From assembly GCA_049438185.1 (NCBI GenBank), contig JBMTJI010000002.1, positions 71,156-135,155 on the forward strand: DNA of 64,000 nt. The letters are read 5' to 3'. Below are positions 29,401 to 37,645 of this stretch, one piece after another. A program made the translations under genes and the position numbers. The stretch comes from Candidatus Poseidoniaceae archaeon (lineage in GTDB: Archaea; Thermoplasmatota; Poseidoniia; Poseidoniales; Poseidoniaceae). Below the pieces are notes generated by a model. That model did not search any database. It was not told the DNA's origin and worked only from the letters and a program-made list of their open reading frames with translations. The first letter of the stretch is position 1. Every line of letters starts with the position of its first letter.

Positions 29401-29464
29401 CCTGAATGCGTCCAACATCACCCTCGTCCGAAGAGGATGGCATTTCTTCGACGTCATCGGACAT
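26402..29464 (-). CDS. MMPL/RND family transporter
   Basis: Two repeats of a large external loop plus TM bundle, with LGVSYGLH, GVGVDFSIH and TTVIGFISL. Start could be 29479. Confidence 0.88.
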   Translation of the reverse strand: MSDDVEEMPSSSDEGDVGRIQAIAEYSKERVRVASVDISARVRDFDARKAVDAVLDAPKRLKREWQKTGATGAITRFPIATVALFLMITLYFVTTSGFLDDTQFDDDPNEPALNVNGDMEVYLPDGSEVKELIGMVEEDWTTNVMVIYIESDKNNITDQRILQEISYVEKNINPYVSDNESDDVIYILSISTVLKEINSSLPRVRDAFITELGRQCPSFQEVCENFAANVNSALSAGDEQFAGGYEIPSQTTIDLIIGEMYENDGSPTPGLDKLARNTNACSGQPNEEGADDNGCFDGEDFKLDRAIMAVAVVDTIEAKDIIKATQERLDNISVEQRPCEFDQNGNPASADRCTWDDLGLKMTLTGPVPITNSVTEFSFRLFWEIFPMAVVLVAIGLFVFHSDLLQAGISGIRPIQGIKVVIIAGLPTLCAVFWTLGIIGATNYEVTMTVIIVGPILLALGVSYGLHITNRYAEEEGSRSEKMQASMKSTGRAVFLSAVTTVIGFISLIFTPMAPIKTVGIALSGGIVIVYILTMFMVPNLTLILDLRKPKHPPLKVFDAAVDVPVKRNTSVIAFFLILVLVSATIGQSNVEENIDLLGMAPEGEQPVIKMKQYSEEFNAGQIGMVLVHANVSGDVTDNDPTNDDPAQNLKIIDGLERNLNTVENASAVSVVFLMKATGLAPTLSGQPILAQIQELPGYELLPEDVRNTFEVLLDTEVTQGATFWDLLTTPEEFGLPGSTQSQIFLLDVFYSSLTKEMREIFINSDYDRTLIYIDMPFIPVADTAVAVDQINEYSEGFQGTHQERAEKLTGVAATAIEVNKLIVDSQWTSLGFAIVLTLIVLAVVFRDIRYSLLTTSPVIATVALQWLVMWQMDVPLSLVTVMIGSILVGVGVDFSIHIANRIRELGGGIEAIRSAAVGTGMSLFEAAVVTSLGMFTAYQIPIPEIKPFVTVILILLWVAAASALLLLPAIFITLEKLGIGVVGGPSGMSRRLGLGKMKADHPDVLEAVLVVDSKNKEAW

Positions 29465-29597
29465 ACGTGAACCCAACACGCCCTTGTGTCTTTCATTGAA
29501 AGGATTGCTGTCTCGTTGTGAGGGAACCGTTCAAAAAGACAAGAACGTAGGGCGAGGCGGACCCCCCCGTTCACAGGGGGCAGGGCCGGTGTTTAGC

Positions 29598-32060
29598 ATG
29601 GCAACGCCACGACTTCCAGAAAAACGATGGTCAATCGACCTTGAAAAAAAAATCCAAGAAGATCACTACGCTGATGAAGCCTCATATCAACAACGATATG
29701 GTTTCAAACCCGACAGCGGCAAACCAATTTTTGTCATCGATACCCCACCCCCATACCCATCGGGAACATGGCATATTGGTGCAGTAGCACAATATTCGAT
29801 GATTGATGTACTAGCACGTTCCCAGCGTTTGTTGGGCAAGGAAGTTTACTTCCCTTGGGGTGTCGATCGAAATGGTATCAACATCGAATTTACTGTTGAG
29901 AAGAATACGAAAAGGAAGATGAAAACGTATGAGCGAGAAGAATTTCTCAACCTCTGCCGTGATACGATTGAAACCTTCACGCAAGCAATGCGAAAGACGG
30001 CTGCTCGTGTAGGTTTATCCTGTGATTTTGCAGCGGAATACCTCACCGATGCGCCTGATTATCGTTCTGTTACACAATCCATTTTCATCGAGTTGTTCAA
30101 AAAAGGCGACATTGTTGAAGATCTGCGACCAAACATCTACGATCCTGTCGAAGGGACAACCATTGCCGATGCGGAGGTTGAACGAATAGGGCGAATGACC
30201 AAACTTGTTGATGTCCGTTGGAACACCGAAGATGGGGAAGAACTTGTTATTTCGACAACTCGTCCAGAATTAATCTGCGCTTGCGGCGTGGTTGTCGTTC
30301 ATCCAGACGATGAACGATACCAACATCTTGTAGGCAAGAAGGCCGTTCTTCCCATGCCGGTTCATGGACGTGAACAAGCGGTCGAAATTCAAACCCATCC
30401 TTCCGTCAAATCAGAATTTGGTAGCGGTATTTTGATGGTATGTTCTTTTGGGGATCAAAACGACGTTGCAGTCTTCAGAGAACTCGGCCTTGCCCCATTC
30501 CAAGCCATTGATTTGAACGGGTGTATGACCTCGATTGCAGGCCCACTTGAGGGCATGGCCGTTCTCGATGCCCGAGCCAAAGCGATTGAGATGTTGGAAA
30601 GCGACGGCAACATCGTCTCAATCGAAGAGCGTCAACAAGAAGTTCCTGTATCTGAACGAGGGAAGAACCCTGTTGAAATCATTCTCCTCAAAGAGTGGTA
30701 TGTACGTCAAACCCATATCCAAGACAAGATGCTTGAGCTGATTAAGGACATTGAATTTCATCCTCCAAGAAACCGTCAATTCTTATTGGATTGGATGGAG
30801 AACATCAGTATTGATTGGCCGATCTCTCGACGCAGATGGTATCACACAGAGATTCCAATTTGGTATTCTGAGGATGAGGAATTCATCATCGTCCCACCAC
30901 CCGGCCAGTATGTTCAACCATGGAAAGATGCTCCTCCTGAAGGCTCACGAGTTCTTCGACGGGACACTCGTGAAGATGTCGGTTCCTTTGCAGATCGTTC
31001 AAGCAGCCTTGGAGAAATTCGTGGTGAAGAAAAGGTGTTCGATACATGGATGGACTCCTCAAACTCCAACCTCTTCGTCAGTGGCTATCTCAATCAACCA
31101 GATGTGTTCGAGAAAGCCTTCCCAACTGCACTGCGTCCTCAAGGAAAGGAAATTGTGCGAACATGGCTTTACTACACGCTCCTCAAGTCTGCACTTTTGT
31201 TGGAACAGCCTGGTTTCAAACACGTTTGGATCGATGGATTAGGAATGGATCCATGGGGTCGAAAAATGTCAAAATCACTCGGCAATGGTATCGATGCTGA
31301 CAGCGTTTTGGAATGCGGTGCTGGTGGCCGAACCGGTTCATGGAAGGTGCGAGGTCCTGATGGTTCTGTTAGTCTCAAAGCGAACAAGATTGGAAGTGAA
31401 TGTTTCCGCCTATGGAAAGCATGTGAGGCACAAGTTGGTGACGATTTCCACATTAACCCTGAAGAAATTGAATCGAAGTATTTTGGAGTCCTAACGAAAA
31501 TTTTCAACGTTGCTCGCTTTGCAAGTCAATTTGATGCTCCCGAACAAGAACCAACAACTCCATATCCAATTGAGGATCAATGGATTCAATCAGAATTTGC
31601 ATCCATGATGAAAACGGTCGAAGATGCATGGACGAACCTTGACATCTACACTGCAACACAAGCGCTCAAAACGTTTGGAACTGGTGTTCTGCCATCGCAT
31701 TGGCTTGAAATGGCAAAATCAAGGCTGTACGATGGAGATCAACATGCTGCGTGGACAATCCACAGCATCTTGCGTCACTTCCTCGCAGCATTCAGTCCTG
31801 TCTGCCCATTTTTCTGTCACCACATCTCGATGACGCTCTACGATGAAAGCGCTGTCGATGTCGATGCCTTCCCAGAACTTCCACCTGTTCAAGTAGATTT
31901 GAATTCCAAGACATCTGAGATTGAAGCGTTCAACAGCGAAGTTTGGAAAACAAAGAAAGAGAATGGGCTATCACTCAACGCAGAAATTGAAGGTATTGAA
32001 ATCCCAGACGTTTTGGAAGCCTTCCGTGGAACGTTAACCCGAATGCACAAGTTACTCTGA
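29598..32060 (+). CDS. valS: Valine--tRNA ligase
   Basis: IDTPPPYPSGTWHIG, STTRPE, DWPISR, FDTWMDSS, KMSKS. The true start is ATG 29598, since the longer ORF overlaps the RND gene. Confidence 0.93.
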   Translation: MATPRLPEKRWSIDLEKKIQEDHYADEASYQQRYGFKPDSGKPIFVIDTPPPYPSGTWHIGAVAQYSMIDVLARSQRLLGKEVYFPWGVDRNGINIEFTVEKNTKRKMKTYEREEFLNLCRDTIETFTQAMRKTAARVGLSCDFAAEYLTDAPDYRSVTQSIFIELFKKGDIVEDLRPNIYDPVEGTTIADAEVERIGRMTKLVDVRWNTEDGEELVISTTRPELICACGVVVVHPDDERYQHLVGKKAVLPMPVHGREQAVEIQTHPSVKSEFGSGILMVCSFGDQNDVAVFRELGLAPFQAIDLNGCMTSIAGPLEGMAVLDARAKAIEMLESDGNIVSIEERQQEVPVSERGKNPVEIILLKEWYVRQTHIQDKMLELIKDIEFHPPRNRQFLLDWMENISIDWPISRRRWYHTEIPIWYSEDEEFIIVPPPGQYVQPWKDAPPEGSRVLRRDTREDVGSFADRSSSLGEIRGEEKVFDTWMDSSNSNLFVSGYLNQPDVFEKAFPTALRPQGKEIVRTWLYYTLLKSALLLEQPGFKHVWIDGLGMDPWGRKMSKSLGNGIDADSVLECGAGGRTGSWKVRGPDGSVSLKANKIGSECFRLWKACEAQVGDDFHINPEEIESKYFGVLTKIFNVARFASQFDAPEQEPTTPYPIEDQWIQSEFASMMKTVEDAWTNLDIYTATQALKTFGTGVLPSHWLEMAKSRLYDGDQHAAWTIHSILRHFLAAFSPVCPFFCHHISMTLYDESAVDVDAFPELPPVQVDLNSKTSEIEAFNSEVWKTKKENGLSLNAEIEGIEIPDVLEAFRGTLTRMHKLL

Positions 32061-33164
32061 TTCCTCATCAAACTTCAACGTAGTCTGACGTGAATCCAAC
32101 TCTTCGAGTTGGCCAAGTCGAAAACCAATAAGACGTATCTTCTCGTCTTGATGTACGTTTTCAGCAAACAATCGGCGTACTTGTCGCAAGAAAACATCCG
32201 TGTCGTCCATAGCGACAGGTATTGATCGACCATGTGTATGCGTTTCAAATCCAGTGTAGCGGATTTTTACTTCTGCAAGTCGACCAGCAATACCTTCCAC
32301 TCGAGCTTTTTCCAAGACACCCTCTGTCAATTGCTCCAATAGGCCGAGTACATGTTCGTGGTCACTTTGATCCGTGGAAAACGTTCGTTCTTTCCCAATC
32401 GAACGACGAGATCTCAATGGACTCACCTCGCTTGATGTTGAACCTTCAACCACCCGAATCAACCAGGAAGAAAACCTACGAGATGTCATTCGAGAAAGTG
32501 CAAGTTCACCCAAATTGACCGCCTCATCCATGGTACTAATTCCCCATTCTGCGAGTACATTGGCTGTCTTTGGACCAATTCCTGGTACTTCACGGACGGA
32601 ACGCTGATCAAAAAATTCAGATATCTCATCTGGTAGAACTCGGTGAATACCATTCGGTTTGTTGACTTCTGAAGACATCTTGGCGATGATTCGTGTAGGC
32701 CCAATTCCAAAGGATGCGGTCAAACCGACTTTTTCGTAAATCGTTCGTTGGAGCCTGCGTGCAAGAGCCATCGCTTCATCCCAATCATGCTCGACAAACT
32801 CTGTTACATCGAGATACGCTTCATCGATACTCGCCTGTTCAAATTTATCTGAATCGTTGCGTAGTATCTTCATGACTCGACGAGATGCCATGGAATACAA
32901 TGAGCGTGTGCCTCGAATGAATCGAGCAGGGCCAAATGGATGCCCCGGACAACGTCGCCATGCTTCAGAAATTGGCATAGCAGAGCGAACACCATACTTT
33001 CGCGCCGCATAATTGCAGGTTGATACAATGCCACGTCCTCGTCCTTGCATGGGATCTGAACCAATGATTAGTGGTTCATCCTCAGGAAACCCATGGTGAA
33101 GAATCTCGACCGATGCAAAAAAGGCATCAAGGTCGCAATGGATGAGAATCCGTTCTTCACGCAC
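32052..33164 (-). CDS. dinB: DNA polymerase IV (Y-family, DinB/Dpo4)
   Basis: HCDLDAFFASVE, STCNYAARKYGVRSAMP, SIDEAYLD, KPNG, PGIGPKT, little-finger RLIG. GTG start assumed; ATG 33200 is the alternative. Confidence 0.93.
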   Translation of the reverse strand: MREERILIHCDLDAFFASVEILHHGFPEDEPLIIGSDPMQGRGRGIVSTCNYAARKYGVRSAMPISEAWRRCPGHPFGPARFIRGTRSLYSMASRRVMKILRNDSDKFEQASIDEAYLDVTEFVEHDWDEAMALARRLQRTIYEKVGLTASFGIGPTRIIAKMSSEVNKPNGIHRVLPDEISEFFDQRSVREVPGIGPKTANVLAEWGISTMDEAVNLGELALSRMTSRRFSSWLIRVVEGSTSSEVSPLRSRRSIGKERTFSTDQSDHEHVLGLLEQLTEGVLEKARVEGIAGRLAEVKIRYTGFETHTHGRSIPVAMDDTDVFLRQVRRLFAENVHQDEKIRLIGFRLGQLEELDSRQTTLKFDEESE

Positions 33165-33202
33165 ACATCGATACACTTGGCGACAGTGTTTGAAATTCAT
33201 CC

Positions 33203-33212
33203 TTCACTTTTC
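33203..33212 (+). promoter_or_regulatory. Candidate DNA-damage box TTCACTTTTC between divergent dinB and the RecA-like gene
   Basis: An identical 10-mer lies upstream of the polB2 operon. It resembles the haloarchaeal UV-inducible motif TTTCACTTTCA. Confidence 0.45.
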
Positions 33213-33273
33213 CATTACCCTCTGCAAAAACACTGAGGTTTGATTTCAGTGATTGGCAATACTTGGTGAGACA

Positions 33274-34110
33274 ATGCTTCCAGCACAACGACAACGTGAT
33301 GAATTACGAATCCCATCGACTGGAATCACGCTACTTGAAGGCCCAGGATATTTTGGAAAGGATGTACGCCATGTGGTGCAACATTGGACAGCCATTCTTC
33401 TTTCGCAAGGACATGCTGTCCATTGGATTGATGGGGGGCACCGATTTGATCCAAGCGGTTTCTTTCCTGAGATGCGTTCGCTGAATTGTCATATCGAAGA
33501 TGGTTTACGGCGATTGTACATTGGAAGGGGTTTCACGTTGCATCAACTGCACGCACTCATTTCGAGAGTGCAACATGAAGCGGCATTAACACATGCATCG
33601 ATGATTGTCATCGATGGTATGTTGACAATGTTTCTTGACGACCAAATCAAACGATTTGAATCACGTTCCATTCTACGTCACTGCATGGCTTCGCTTGAAA
33701 AATTGGGGCATCGTTGTCCTATTGTCCTTCTGGATGGGAAGACCAAATCGCCTCTGCATCAACAACTGAAGCACACGATGCGACCCTACCTAAATCAGCG
33801 ATTGAAGGGTCATTGGGACGGGCAAAGAAAGACTGCACTTCGTTTCACGAACATGACAAATGCTGACCAAATACTGATTGAGCGCCCAAAAACCACAACT
33901 GAACAACATCAATTGACAGACTTTACATCCATTGATTCAAACGAACAAACGACGGTTGGAGGAGTTCATCTTCAGACCAACCGAACGGAGCCAAAATCGA
34001 CCATATTGCACGTACGGCCAGGCGGCGATAATGCTCAACATCAATGCGTCGAATTGGATGTTCCATGTGTTCACATTCCCGAGCAAGAACGACTCGGTGC
34101 AAGGGATTAG
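33274..34110 (+). CDS. Degenerate RecA/RadA-like ATPase (ImuA-like, PolB2-associated)
   Basis: Degenerate Walker A EGPGYFGKD, VHWIDGGHRFDP, RGFTLHQL and Walker B MIVIDG. GGTGA SD lies 4 nt before ATG 33274. Confidence 0.75.
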   Translation: MLPAQRQRDELRIPSTGITLLEGPGYFGKDVRHVVQHWTAILLSQGHAVHWIDGGHRFDPSGFFPEMRSLNCHIEDGLRRLYIGRGFTLHQLHALISRVQHEAALTHASMIVIDGMLTMFLDDQIKRFESRSILRHCMASLEKLGHRCPIVLLDGKTKSPLHQQLKHTMRPYLNQRLKGHWDGQRKTALRFTNMTNADQILIERPKTTTEQHQLTDFTSIDSNEQTTVGGVHLQTNRTEPKSTILHVRPGGDNAQHQCVELDVPCVHIPEQERLGARD

Positions 34111-36319
34111 CAGGATCTTTTTCACAAACAACAAAACGAACTTTTGAGGCCAATTCAAGCGGATACCCAAGAGATTCAGAACGCTGGTAAGCCAACATTG
34201 CAACGGTTTGCGTGCCATTCTGTGATGGCTTTCTTGAGATTCGTTGTGCGATGAGCAACTCCTTTGGAAGCAGTTGGTGCTGTTCAAGACGTTTCACTTC
34301 ATCGATCAGCAGACGTTGAACTTGACTTTGAACACGATGATGCGGGATTCCATCGACCAAATCATCCGAATCAGCAAGAATTCGAAGAGCCCGAGATTGC
34401 AATTGAGCAATCCATGGACATGTCGAATGTTGGCGCAATTCAAGACCTCGAATCTTCATCCCCTTCTCCCCGTAAGCCCAATACTTGGTAAGAGAACCAC
34501 CGCTGTGTACTCGACTTGGAAGGAATGCAATGCAACGGTACGTCGCTTCATATTCAAGAGGAATTCCAGTCATCTCGTGGACATGTCTTGACAAGTTCAT
34601 GGCGGATTGATGTTGTTCTTCGTGTGTACGCCCTTTAATGTCTCGAATCCAAATCGAATCGACAATGGCGTGCAACACTTCCCACCCATGCTCTTGCGCA
34701 GAATCGATGGTTTGCAAAAGGAGCTCACGTGCCCAAGCACAGATGGCTTCATGCGCTTCAATACGGCCAAAACGAGCATTGCGATAACCGGTGTAACCAA
34801 AGCAGGTGACGAGGAGCCATTTGAGGGCGTTTTGCTGGCGATCGGCTGCGTCTCCTTTGATGACAATCTGTTGCTTTAGACGTCGACGACGTTCAATGAG
34901 AGGTGCAACGACACGGCCGAGAAATCCATGACGACGGCCACACGTATGGGTCATCAATTCAGGAACCTGAAACGCCGTTGAGCATCGTTGAGGAAACGCA
35001 AGACTCGCTGATTTCCATTGCTGATTTTGAAATTGAAACCGTTTCTTGGCTTCATCGGGATGAAGTGGAAGCGGTACAGTGTTTTCAGTTGGTTGGCAAC
35101 AACTGCAGTTCAATGTTTCTGGAGAGATGTTGCGCGTTGCAATAATGCTTGGAAAAAGACTCGCGAAATCAAGTTCAATCACATTCGCATAGACGCCAGG
35201 GCGACTATCGAGATAGAGTCCGCCTCGGTCGGATTGCAACAAATCCCATGCAGATTTTGTGTCCTCAGGACGCGTCTTTTTCCACGGAACAAGTACACCA
35301 TCCTCCATCGCAACTCTGTATTGTATCGCACTGATGACCGAGCCCGGCGACTTTCGCGCTGCATCACTGATTCGCGTAGCAGAAACCTGAGCGAGTTCAT
35401 ACAAACCATCGAGACCGCCCTCTCGAAACATGAAACTGGAAGAGAGATCGATATGGATGCGACCTTCAAGCGGAAATTGAGGGTCGCTTCGCAAGACTTG
35501 GCCATAGGATGACAGAATTCGTCTTCGGCCAACTTGTCGTAACGGTGTTTGATTACGTCCAAGACAGATGGTTGCATGTTTGGCCTCAAGATACGAGAGC
35601 AAGTGTGGAAACCCTTCGGTATTACCACGCACAGACAACACAAGATCGGGGTCGTATTCACGAAACCATCGTTCCAATTGCTGAATCTGTTCGGGTACAT
35701 TCAACCCAAATGTCACCTGAGAACCGGTCATGTTGCCCGATGTATCGCATGGAGTGACACGAACATGCGTTGGCTGCCGACATAATGTTCGACCTTGACC
35801 AACATCGTTGAGATGGATCTCGATTTGACAACAGCGCCAATCACGTCGGTGAACATCATTGCCCAGGAGGCTCAACTTGTTTTGATGGAGGGATACAGCG
35901 GAACCAATGGTCAATCGCTTGGAAGTGAGATACTGTTGTTCGGCTCGAACATCCACAGAATAAAGCGTGAACCGGACATGCTCTCCTCGTGCATCGATAT
36001 GTTCTGCGAGAGAGCGTAATGTTGCACATGATTCAAGGGTAAGAGCAAGCATACGTTCCATATCTTGAGAACCTAATTCAGGGCGTTTCATTTCAAAAGC
36101 ATAACTCTGCAAACCATAGCGAATCCGAAGTTCCGGTTGCCACAGCCAGTCAGCCAAGTTTCGAAGATCTGAAGGATTACCAGCCACATGAACAACCGGG
36201 TGCCAAGGTTCGCGAAATGAGGTCACGGTACCTTCTTGGGTTACAATCCATACGATCAATTCACGTTGATCAGAGCAAAGATGAGCATCGAGAATCCATC
36301 CTTCAATCGCTTCCATCAT
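33923..36319 (-). CDS. Family B DNA polymerase, PolB2 group (altered active site, eroded exonuclease)
   Basis: GWILD N-terminus, DRGGL, ELDFASLFPSII, NISPET, ALKWLLVTCFGYTG. Motif C YGDTDS is replaced by HAIVDS. Confidence 0.9.
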   Translation of the reverse strand: MMEAIEGWILDAHLCSDQRELIVWIVTQEGTVTSFREPWHPVVHVAGNPSDLRNLADWLWQPELRIRYGLQSYAFEMKRPELGSQDMERMLALTLESCATLRSLAEHIDARGEHVRFTLYSVDVRAEQQYLTSKRLTIGSAVSLHQNKLSLLGNDVHRRDWRCCQIEIHLNDVGQGRTLCRQPTHVRVTPCDTSGNMTGSQVTFGLNVPEQIQQLERWFREYDPDLVLSVRGNTEGFPHLLSYLEAKHATICLGRNQTPLRQVGRRRILSSYGQVLRSDPQFPLEGRIHIDLSSSFMFREGGLDGLYELAQVSATRISDAARKSPGSVISAIQYRVAMEDGVLVPWKKTRPEDTKSAWDLLQSDRGGLYLDSRPGVYANVIELDFASLFPSIIATRNISPETLNCSCCQPTENTVPLPLHPDEAKKRFQFQNQQWKSASLAFPQRCSTAFQVPELMTHTCGRRHGFLGRVVAPLIERRRRLKQQIVIKGDAADRQQNALKWLLVTCFGYTGYRNARFGRIEAHEAICAWARELLLQTIDSAQEHGWEVLHAIVDSIWIRDIKGRTHEEQHQSAMNLSRHVHEMTGIPLEYEATYRCIAFLPSRVHSGGSLTKYWAYGEKGMKIRGLELRQHSTCPWIAQLQSRALRILADSDDLVDGIPHHRVQSQVQRLLIDEVKRLEQHQLLPKELLIAQRISRKPSQNGTQTVAMLAYQRSESLGYPLELASKVRFVVCEKDPANPLHRVVLARECEHMEHPIRRIDVEHYRRLAVRAIWSILAPFGWSEDELLQPSFVRLNQWM

Positions 36320-36596
36320 CAGCTTCACCCAACGCAAGAATCTGTTCCTCAAGAGATGCAATGTGCTGTTCAAGAAGTTGAATCCTCTCGTGAGCACCAA
36401 GAAGCATTGACAAGAGCATGGGCTTCCATGCTTCGTGGGCGGGAAGCATACCTCCTGCTGCTCGACGCATGCGCACGTCATGGAGCATGGCATCAAATCG
36501 ACAACGATCTCCTTCTGAGAGGGCTCGTCGGTACGGAACGAGCACCTCGATTTCTTGCTCTACACGCCCTCGCCAAGTCGGTACAGTACGCCCCAT
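36303..36596 (-). CDS. Small PolB2-associated helical protein (arCOG07300-like)
   Basis: MGRTVPTWR...YRRAL..DR..FD..LLSMLL plus a coiled coil. Overlaps the polB2 start, the usual arrangement for this family. Confidence 0.8.
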   Translation of the reverse strand: MGRTVPTWRGRVEQEIEVLVPYRRALSEGDRCRFDAMLHDVRMRRAAGGMLPAHEAWKPMLLSMLLGAHERIQLLEQHIASLEEQILALGEADDGSD

Positions 36597-36642
36597 AGAC
36601 ATTGAACTACGAACCATACGGAAGCGTTGTGAGAACCCCTCC

Positions 36643-36655
36643 TGAAAAGTGAAAA
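36643..36655 (-). promoter_or_regulatory. Candidate DNA-damage box TTTTCACTTTTCA upstream of the polB2 operon
   Basis: Direct repeat TTTTCA-C-TTTTCA about 47 nt upstream of the ATG. It could also act as an oligo-T terminator of the upstream dehydrogenase. Confidence 0.45.
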
Positions 36656-36658
36656 TGG

Positions 36659-37645
36659 TCAAGAGAGATCGTTTCGATTAACGGTTGTTTCAGCCATTCC
36701 TCCATCGAGAACGGTTAGGACTGCATCGACGATGTCAAGACCAACACGACGTTGTGCTTCAATTGTTGCAGCACCAATGTGAGGTGTGCCATGGAAATTT
36801 TGGTGTTGCAAAAGAGGTGAAGAAGGGTCAACTGGTTCATGTTCAAACACATCGAGAGCAAGCGAGGATAGTTGCCCAGATTCTAAGGCTTCAAGAGCAG
36901 CATCTTCGTCAACAATACCTCCACGAGCACAGTTGACAATGTGGTTTCCACACGTGAGATTGAACGGATCAACGCCAGGCATCATCTTGATTCTCTTTTG
37001 ATTGATGAGGTGATGCGTTTCTTCTGTGAGATTGCAGTGAACGGAAATGTGCGTGCATAGTTTGAACAAATTGTCGATGTTCTTGTGCATCGTTACGCCC
37101 GCTTTCTTTGCAATTGAAAGAGGCAGGTAAGGGTCATAGGAATGTACCTCCATGCCAAATGCACGAGCAACCGCTGCCACACCTTGGGCAATGCGACCGA
37201 ATCCGATGAGACCGAGTCGCTTTCCATAGAGTTCTGTTCCTTTGAGTTCTTTTTTTGCCCAATCTCCGGACCGTAGAGAACGATCTGCACGAGGGAGAAA
37301 TCGAAGTGAAGCAAGTAAATGACCGACTGTGAGTTCCACGACACTTTGCGTACTTGCTCTTGGTGCGTTGACCACCGGAACACCGATTTTGGAAGCAGCG
37401 TCAATGTCAATGTTGTCGACACCGACACCTGCTCTGGCAACGACTTTGAGTCGTGGTTGGCTAACGGCCAACATCTCTTCAGTGATCTTCGTCGCACTTC
37501 GGACGATGATTGCATCAAACTCAGCAAGTGCCCCTTGAACCAGTTGTTGGTGTTCGATGAACTCCTGAATCACTTCGCACCCAGCATTCTCGAGTCTCTT
37601 CACAGCTTCTTCAGCCATCCCGTCGGTGACAGCAACTCTGCGCAT
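36659..37645 (-). CDS. serA: D-3-phosphoglycerate dehydrogenase-like 2-hydroxyacid dehydrogenase (no ACT domain)
   Basis: VRSATK, RAGVGVDNID, GFGRI, NCARGG, ALDVFEHEP, TPHIGAAT. Confidence 0.8.
   Translation of the reverse strand: MRRVAVTDGMAEEAVKRLENAGCEVIQEFIEHQQLVQGALAEFDAIIVRSATKITEEMLAVSQPRLKVVARAGVGVDNIDIDAASKIGVPVVNAPRASTQSVVELTVGHLLASLRFLPRADRSLRSGDWAKKELKGTELYGKRLGLIGFGRIAQGVAAVARAFGMEVHSYDPYLPLSIAKKAGVTMHKNIDNLFKLCTHISVHCNLTEETHHLINQKRIKMMPGVDPFNLTCGNHIVNCARGGIVDEDAALEALESGQLSSLALDVFEHEPVDPSSPLLQHQNFHGTPHIGAATIEAQRRVGLDIVDAVLTVLDGGMAETTVNRNDLS

Follow-up and report, generated by a model that had tools for sequence, protein, structure and literature searches.

A PolB2 mutasome cassette beside a resident dinB gene in a Poseidoniales archaeon, and a promoter element that it shares with radA

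The genome of a Candidatus Poseidoniaceae archaeon (assembly GCA_049438185.1) carries on contig JBMTJI010000002.1 a cluster of four genes, encoding a DinB polymerase, a RadA-like protein (iRadA), a Dpo2-type family-B DNA polymerase (PolB2) and a small protein (PPB2, arCOG07300). The cluster lies in a stretch of 64,000 nucleotides (nt; contig positions 71,156 to 135,155), called the window here, and its features are listed in Table 1. With a probability of about 0.85, we conclude that PPB2, PolB2 and iRadA form a PolB2 mutasome cassette that sits beside a resident dinB gene, that this cassette consists of two units, each preceded by a copy of the same promoter element and likely induced by DNA damage, and that DinB is no subunit or fixed partner of it. 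The module was already known, and the locus is one more instance of the archaeal PolB2 mutasome described in the literature. Makarova, Krupovic and Koonin linked PolB2, arCOG07300 and inactivated RadA paralogs in a predicted operon in 2014 (PMC4104785), and Timinskas, Timinskas and Venclovas named the partners PPB2 and iRadA in 2025, described an MGRT arm with Arg3 and Arg9, and modelled a heteropentamer of one PolB2, one iRadA and three PPB2 that contains no Y polymerase, with one Poseidoniales model set (PMC11791011). Poseidoniales operons are listed there as group '3b (PPB2-PolB2-iRadA)'. One published entry shares its N-terminus with the PolB2 of a locus in our collection (L030), which is 42% identical to that of the window over its full length.

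A preliminary description of this DNA, made from the letters alone, had named the four genes, and all of them are present where it placed them. They are contiguous, as it stated, but not co-directional: iRadA lies on the strand opposite to dinB, PolB2 and PPB2. The iRadA and dinB genes diverge, with 73 nt from ATG to ATG, and the iRadA and PolB2 genes converge, their 3' ends overlapping by 188 nt. This layout gives the module two promoters. The stop of PPB2, whose start is most likely at 36596, overlaps the start of PolB2 by 17 nt. The PolB2 open reading frame can be read upstream to 36496, the start assumed earlier, but this extension overlaps PPB2; the relatives begin to align at the ATG at 36319 (MMEAIEGW), which we take as the start instead. 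Base composition is flat over the whole region. The internal arrangement, with iRadA on the opposite strand, is kept in the window and in 27 of 27 related module loci, whereas the published operons, as far as the paper describes them, stand mostly in one orientation. In the remaining features, the likeness to the published system is close: it covers the three families, the MGRT arm with R3 and R9, an IVD motif C, a decayed exonuclease and an iRadA without N-terminal domain, as well as the gene order PPB2-PolB2-iRadA, adjacent and co-inherited.

To place the four genes in the order, we searched 151 genomes with each protein; f1 denotes the family of the window genome (G000), f2 a further family and f3 the sister family. 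PolB2 and iRadA were each found in 71 genomes, the same ones, with identical per-genus tallies. PPB2 was found in 68, always directly upstream of PolB2, and its three misses are genomes in which PolB2 is cut or starts at a contig end. This co-occurrence agrees with the earlier view of PolB2, an arCOG07300-like protein and a RadA-like protein as a known recurrent module. DinB is distributed otherwise. It occurs in 82 of the 151 genomes (73 of the 74 other f1 genomes, both f2 genomes and 6 of 74 f3 genomes) and was detectable in none of the 18 module-bearing f3 genomes.

A synteny map, made by tblastn over 40 fetched loci, gave a backbone order of RND transporter, valyl-tRNA synthetase-like gene (ValRS), DinB, 2-hydroxyacid dehydrogenase, membrane protein and subtilase. 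In 12 of the mapped loci the cassette separates DinB from the dehydrogenase, while DinB directly adjoins the dehydrogenase in six module-less genomes (G062, of the same genus as the window, and G054, G060, G064, G102 and G068). The same direct junction is seen in G049 of the sister family (L043), for which absence of the module is taken from a tally of 0 of 7 in its genus. In five genomes the module is elsewhere and the site beside dinB is empty (G080, G088, G108, G114 and G100). Because DinB keeps its backbone position with or without the module, dinB is a resident gene beside the cassette, and that the four genes form an 'island' is mostly due to chance, in that the module happened to land there. 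Target-site duplications were sought at the cassette borders, and none was clear. The published survey gives a matching picture: in its Table S1, the 95 group-3b operons list the Y-polymerase domain IMS 46 times, 2-Hacid_dh_C 45 times and tRNA-synt_1 42 times, so that IMS is no commoner than the housekeeping neighbours; in its main text IMS is undiscussed and 'DinB' is confined to the introduction (PMC11791011). The preliminary description had the Y polymerase physically joined to the module. Close relatives differ in whether the cassette adjoins dinB, occupies another site or is missing, which shows that the Y-family polymerase does not belong to the unit.

The cassette carries promoter sequences of its own. 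From 28 PPB2 upstream regions (110 nt upstream of the start, aligned) we built a position weight matrix of a 16-bp tandem element with the consensus (A/T)TCACTTTCACTTTCA. In all 28 loci, the highest-scoring site is 63-79 nt from the PPB2 ATG, on its upstream side, and 27 of these sites reach 14.3 bits or more, whatever the genomic context. In the window, the upstream edge of the element is 63 nt from the PPB2 ATG, and the element abuts the dehydrogenase stop. Upstream of iRadA, and in its orientation, 19 of 28 loci have a copy that reaches 10.5 bits, and in 14 of the 28 the copy reaches 14 bits; the window's copy lies 56-71 nt upstream of the iRadA ATG. The cassette is bracketed, on this evidence, by two inward-facing putative promoters of the same kind. 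The dehydrogenase-dinB spacers of 12 empty sites had no match at 10.5 bits or more (0 of 12), which also speaks against a Y polymerase joined to the module. The empty site of the module-less genome of the window's genus (L023:5488-5551) has look-alikes of both cassette-edge elements, CCATTACTTCAAC and GAAGAAGTGATC, below 10.5 bits; such weak look-alikes would suit a site that once had the cassette and lost it, more than one that had always been empty.

The same element stands upstream of radA in 26 of 30 f1 genomes and 16 of 20 f2 and f3 genomes (42 of 50), including genomes without the module, and in the window genome it is 107 nt upstream of radA. As the cassette shares its element with the radA promoters, it is probably switched on together with recombinational repair. 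We consider that the cassette is probably induced together with radA, and probably by DNA damage, by analogy with Sulfolobales. A damage-response element of that order, 5'-ANTTTC-3', is reportedly bound by Orc1-2. The two ACTTTC (sometimes AGTTTC) hexamers of our element fit ANTTTC and lie upstream of the PolB2 operon, and the window genome encodes two Orc1/Cdc6 paralogs, at C1:10367-11692 and C4:46356-47612. The two systems differ in layout, with a tandem 16-bp element at -63 to -79 here and a single hexamer at -23 to -55 in Sulfolobales, and also in that no element at 9 bits or more was found upstream of either orc1/cdc6 gene of the genome. The resemblance is suggestive only, ANTTTC being short enough to fit by chance. 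In Sulfolobus, dpo2, and not dpo4, is induced after damage through ANTTTC in an Orc1-2-dependent manner (Sun 2018, PMC6061795). The literature searched held no description of our element or of a damage regulon in Poseidoniales.

Genome-wide, 35 matches to the element reached 14 bits, where five Markov shuffles gave 17-26; 19 bits was reached by 4 matches in the genome and by 1-2 in the shuffles. This enrichment is modest, and the case for a functional element rests on its conservation at orthologous promoters. The radA promoters (L050:860-1080, L051-L079, L142-L161) often carry an inverted pair of the element (TTCACTTTCA-N12-14-AAAGTGAA) some 100-160 nt before the ATG, and have a conserved TATA-like (T/C)TT(C/G)ATATA box nearer the gene. 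The genome's best match (L044:3753-4412), TTCACTTTCACTTTCA followed by a second copy, precedes a gene of 197 amino acids without a Pfam family (C12:3819-4412), which has a perfect consensus 66 nt upstream; 29 of 30 relatives keep the element there, at -60 to -73. This gene is flanked by a TFB gene (C12:2451-3440) and a metallo-beta-lactamase gene, and a language-model search suggests that its product is a partial WD40-like beta-propeller found in Thermoplasmatota. Another copy (21.3 bits) lies 4 nt past the stop of the RFC small-subunit gene (L045:3619-3634; G000 C12:51618) and faces the 3' end of a convergent gene, with no evident downstream target. An intergenic match between the genes for the ribonucleotide reductase small subunit and dUTPase (16.7 bits) is conserved in 1 of 30 relatives; we therefore regard it as a chance match and kept it as a negative control.

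Unlike DinB, proteins of the SRAP family share the patchy distribution of the module. Neighbours at other module sites were annotated with Pfam, and the gene divergent from iRadA proved to encode SRAP in 5 of 8 f3 loci, in the position that dinB holds in f1. Over the same 151 genomes, SRAP was found in 56: 55 of the 71 with the module and 1 of the 80 without it (G130). All nine SRAP genes of f3 are adjacent and divergent to iRadA (nine of the 18 module-bearing genomes), and the 56 module-less f3 genomes yielded none. Eight f1 genomes have SRAP and the module on one contig, some 46-50 kb apart; in this family SRAP was found neither in the module-less G062 nor in any of the 11 module-less genomes of genus g2. 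The pattern recurs in several genera. Because related genomes are not independent, we treat this co-distribution as a lead and not as a statistic. No element at 8 bits or more was present in 520 nt scanned around an SRAP start, a site at which SRAP follows another gene with overlapping start and stop. In the published survey, SRAP proteins are described as shielding abasic sites and are enriched near polB2, mostly in other operon groups, with 3 of 95 in group 3b (PMC11791011). A further neighbour was seen where the cassette of one f1 subclade sits away from dinB: directly upstream of PPB2 and on the same strand, a 652-amino-acid protein with a DNA photolyase domain (E=6.9e-9; L012:7878-9836).

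Several observations weigh against our conclusion. The dinB gene adjoins iRadA in 40 of the 53 module-bearing f1 genomes, or 40 of 71 in the order, and in G030 two genes are inserted between PolB2 and iRadA (L011:7048-8993; ceramidase-like and CDP-alcohol phosphatidyltransferase) with iRadA still next to dinB. The iRadA-side element is 2 nt from the dinB ATG, so that some co-regulation of dinB is possible, and the SRAP genes in the equivalent divergent position of f3 hint that the position beside iRadA is perhaps not neutral. The iRadA P-loop is intact by sequence (GxxxxGKS/T) in 6 of 23 aligned relatives, making the label 'inactive' uncertain for some iRadA proteins. Lastly, the damage induction and complex formation that we propose are extrapolated from Sulfolobus and from published models. 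The adjacency, the surviving iRadA-dinB pair of G030, the abutting element and the SRAP genes, together with the photolyase-domain gene at the alternative site and the published cooperation of Dpo4 and Dpo2 (Feng et al.), would all favour a reading in which dinB belongs to a four-gene damage-tolerance island as a regulatory member: it would share a 73-bp bidirectional control region with iRadA, and the inserter (DinB) and the extender (PolB2 complex) would be induced together without joining a shared complex. We consider this unlikely. The element is oriented and spaced for iRadA and not for dinB; where the module is missing, dinB keeps its site but has no element; and dpo4 of Sulfolobus is not damage-induced (PMC6061795). 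In f1, dinB is on another contig in 12 of the 53 module-bearing genomes (in two of them the module is at the end of a contig, which leaves the case undecided) and was not found in one; the five genomes checked at both loci have the module elsewhere and the dinB site empty. The adjacency of dinB and the module, noted at first, does hold in many relatives; the 18 module-bearing genomes of the sister family yielded no dinB.

DinB itself appears to be an ordinary, active Pol IV that was resident at the site before the cassette. Pfam recognises IMS (E=2e-39) and IMS_C (E=6.7e-22) in it, and its 273.5 bits for the NCBIfam Pol IV equivalog NF002677 exceed the cut-off of 256. It has the catalytic motifs CDLDAFF and SIDEAYLD, of which D23, D25, D126 and E127 are invariant in 16 relatives. 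The gene was described as intact from the outset, and these matches bear that out. It was also proposed that the four proteins mirror the bacterial ImuABC system. Likeness to ImuA-ImuB-DnaE2 and to Pol V (UmuD'2C-RecA) consists in an error-tolerant polymerase, a RecA-family protein and a small accessory protein. ImuB, however, is a catalytically dead Y polymerase and DnaE2 belongs to family C, whereas DinB keeps its catalytic residues and is not inherited together with the module, the other polymerase is of family B, and the locus has no LexA control. We take the parallel as an analogy and no more.

For the same reasons we judge it extremely unlikely that the four proteins form one physical mutasome like ImuA-ImuB-DnaE2 or Pol V, with DinB docking on iRadA as UmuC does on RecA. 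Such a complex would be in keeping with the gene adjacency, with the RecA-binding motif carried by many Y-family polymerases (PMC11791011) and with the clamp-type QxxLxxF/W motifs present in all three proteins concerned (DinB, PolB2 and iRadA). Besides the points just made, however, DinB is distributed independently of the module, and its sequence has no module-dependent change: the DinB of module-less G062 is 92% identical to that of the window, and those of module-bearing relatives of the genus are 89-98% identical. The published models, moreover, close as PolB2, iRadA and three PPB2 with no Y polymerase (PMC11791011). A complex prediction of DinB with iRadA(1-225), made with alignments, scored 0.00 in both runs and had no controls, and weighs neither way.

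PolB2 matches Pfam DNA_pol_B (E=6e-26) and an NCBIfam type-B subfamily (E=7e-108). It was aligned with two references, P. abyssi PolB and the canonical PolB encoded on contig C11 of the window genome. Its motif C reads HAIVDS, compared with YSDTDS in the canonical PolB, so that the first Asp of DxD is replaced; the motif A Asp and the motif B Lys are retained. In the exonuclease region there are gaps at ExoI (DLE) and ExoIII (Y...D), and EGF replaces NFD of ExoII. The alignment confirms the HAIVDS motif and the missing exonuclease motifs noted earlier. The loss of the first motif C Asp (IVD) and of the exonuclease motifs could be taken to mean that the cassette encodes a catalytically dead regulatory or scaffold complex that acts on replication and is not a polymerase, in line with the inactivation of PolB2 proposed in 2014 (PMC4104785). 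This is very unlikely, since S. islandicus Dpo2, which has IID in motif C, is a robust polymerase (PMC11791011; Feng et al.), and since seven aligned sequences (six PolB2 and the genome's own PolB) all keep the Asp of motif A, the Lys of motif B and the second Asp of motif C.

The small protein begins with MGRTVPTWR, as had been noted, and M1, G2, R3, V5, W8 and R9 are invariant in 20 sequences. A structural model of PPB2 (pLDDT 87.8) has a 7-residue arm followed by helices at 8-24, 28-43 and 57-92. Against the PDB, Foldseek gave no match for this model at E<=0.001, and the published likeness to sigma factors was not reproduced with Foldseek. Neither PPB2 nor iRadA had anything usable in Pfam or NCBIfam, iRadA having no Pfam match at all; ArlH and IS110 rows (E>0.01) were disregarded.

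A 23-sequence profile of iRadA, run against the PDB, found RadA, RAD51 and RAD51 paralogs (best E=1.2e-6), and a Foldseek search with its AlphaFold model gave top matches exclusively to Rad51, RadA and DMC1 chains, which upholds the RecA-fold assignment of the preliminary description. In the model, the core (residues 10-205) is mostly above pLDDT 90 and the tail below 50. Superposed on the ATPase domain of P. furiosus RadA, it has a TM score of 0.65-0.70 on target length and a root-mean-square deviation of 2.7; it lacks the N-terminal domain of RadA. The P-loop, GPGYFGKD, had been called a broken Walker A, and it is so in part: Asp stands in place of Ser/Thr, but the Lys is retained. Across the order (23 relatives), P-loops range from canonical GxxxxGKS/T through K-to-R/S/Q changes to unrecognisable, a pattern of relaxed constraint as judged from the alignment. 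Residues ~222-278 (33940-34110, the last ~54 codons) form a predicted disordered tail that overlaps the 3' end of PolB2 and is conserved only within the genus. The nearest relative has TAA at iRadA codon 225, 10 codons past a conserved QHQLTDF motif, where the window has CAA, adding the 54-residue tail.

Three of the proteins carry putative motifs for binding the sliding clamp PCNA. The genome's canonical PolB ends in RQTTLFSF (L001:1162-1190), a PCNA-interacting protein (PIP) box. The C-terminus of PolB2 (33923-33950), VRLNQWM, aligns with this box, and in f3 the PolB2 C-termini read QTTLEAWV and similar, the Leu of an L..(F/W/Y) motif being invariant. DinB ends in RQTTLKFDEESE (32052-32090), of which RQTTLKF resembles the canonical PolB PIP box, and QHQLTDF of iRadA (~residues 208-214) is a conserved motif of the QxxLxxF type. 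Because these motifs resemble the canonical QxxLxxFF pattern cited in PMC11791011, we infer that PolB2, DinB and iRadA may bind PCNA. The published motif search lists no clamp motif for one Poseidoniales PolB2 row (PMC11791011), and in this respect the conserved C-terminal motif seen here differs from that row.

Taken with the published work, these features point to the following mechanism for the cassette. Between the resident dinB and the 2-hydroxyacid dehydrogenase gene, it would be read as two transcription units, a translationally coupled PPB2-PolB2 operon and the convergent iRadA, and both would be switched on with radA, most likely after DNA damage. By analogy with Sulfolobus, PolB2 would act as a proofreading-less polymerase that extends primers past lesions. 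It would be held with iRadA and a PPB2 trimer, the MGRT arm inserting between them as in the published models. DinB or the replicase may place the nucleotide opposite the lesion, with a hand-over to PolB2 on PCNA as from Dpo4 to Dpo2. The preliminary description had suggested an inserter (DinB) and an extender (PolB2) within one complex: the division of labour is plausible and is already published for Sulfolobus, in which Dpo4 (inserter) hands over to Dpo2 (extender) and the two cooperate on abasic sites (Feng et al. 2021, 2022), but the four-protein complex has no support. The window genome resembles Sulfolobus in having an active DinB-type polymerase and PolB2 in one genome; it differs in that the genes are unlinked in Sulfolobus, where only dpo2 is damage-induced in the published work. 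Three salt-marsh metatranscriptome contig sets and one unlabelled run contain 95-99% identical pieces over dinB, iRadA, PolB2, PPB2 and the flanks, at low, flat depth, and such contigs cannot show transcription, strand, starts or relative level.

A wider reading, which we put forward tentatively and at somewhat less than even odds, is that the element marks an order-wide DNA-damage regulon of Poseidoniales, comprising radA, both cassette promoters and the gene for the 197-amino-acid protein, and that it is the counterpart of ANTTTC and Orc1-2. The cassette would then carry its own damage switch to any site at which it lands, and SRAP, in place of DinB, would be its real co-inherited partner, with abasic-site tolerance as their common task.

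Table 1. Positions of the genes and promoter elements discussed, in window coordinates except for SRAP, which is given by locus
Feature	Position	Strand	Remarks
ValRS, valyl-tRNA synthetase-like gene	29406-32060	+	backbone marker on the dinB side; named from reading the translation
dinB	32052-33200	-	382 amino acids, Pol IV; backbone gene outside the cassette
Weaker copy of the promoter element, facing iRadA	33203-33218	+	TTCACTTTTCCATTAC, 12.9 bits (position weight matrix scan)
iRadA	33274-34110	+	RadA core with degenerate P-loop; alternative TTG start at 33253
PolB2 (Dpo2-type family-B polymerase)	33923-36319	-	from Pfam, NCBIfam and alignments
PPB2 (arCOG07300)	36303-36596	-	97 amino acids; three helices; MGR(T/S)V..WR arm
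Promoter element of the PPB2-PolB2 operon	36644-36659	-	ACCATTTTCACTTTTC, 19.6 bits
D-isomer 2-hydroxyacid/phosphoglycerate dehydrogenase-like gene	36659-37645	-	Pfam 2-Hacid_dh_C, E=1.6e-51; backbone marker on the PPB2 side
SRAP gene divergent from iRadA	L024:8397-9101, L025:4303-5028, L026:8656-9297, L030:7915-8580, L031:4459-5103		sister family

Beyond the literature searched, this analysis adds the ACTTTC element, the co-distribution of SRAP and the C-terminal motif of PolB2. The locus is a natural experiment, in which close relatives have the cassette beside dinB, elsewhere or absent. Throughout an order of uncultured marine archaea, the cassette is linked to radA by a conserved promoter element, and this element resembles the only characterised archaeal damage switch. 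Were the regulon real, the cassette would place the gene that it lands beside, dinB in f1 and SRAP in f3, next to a damage switch. Should it prove to be a genuine damage-response site, the element would offer the first handle on damage regulation in an abundant surface-ocean group.

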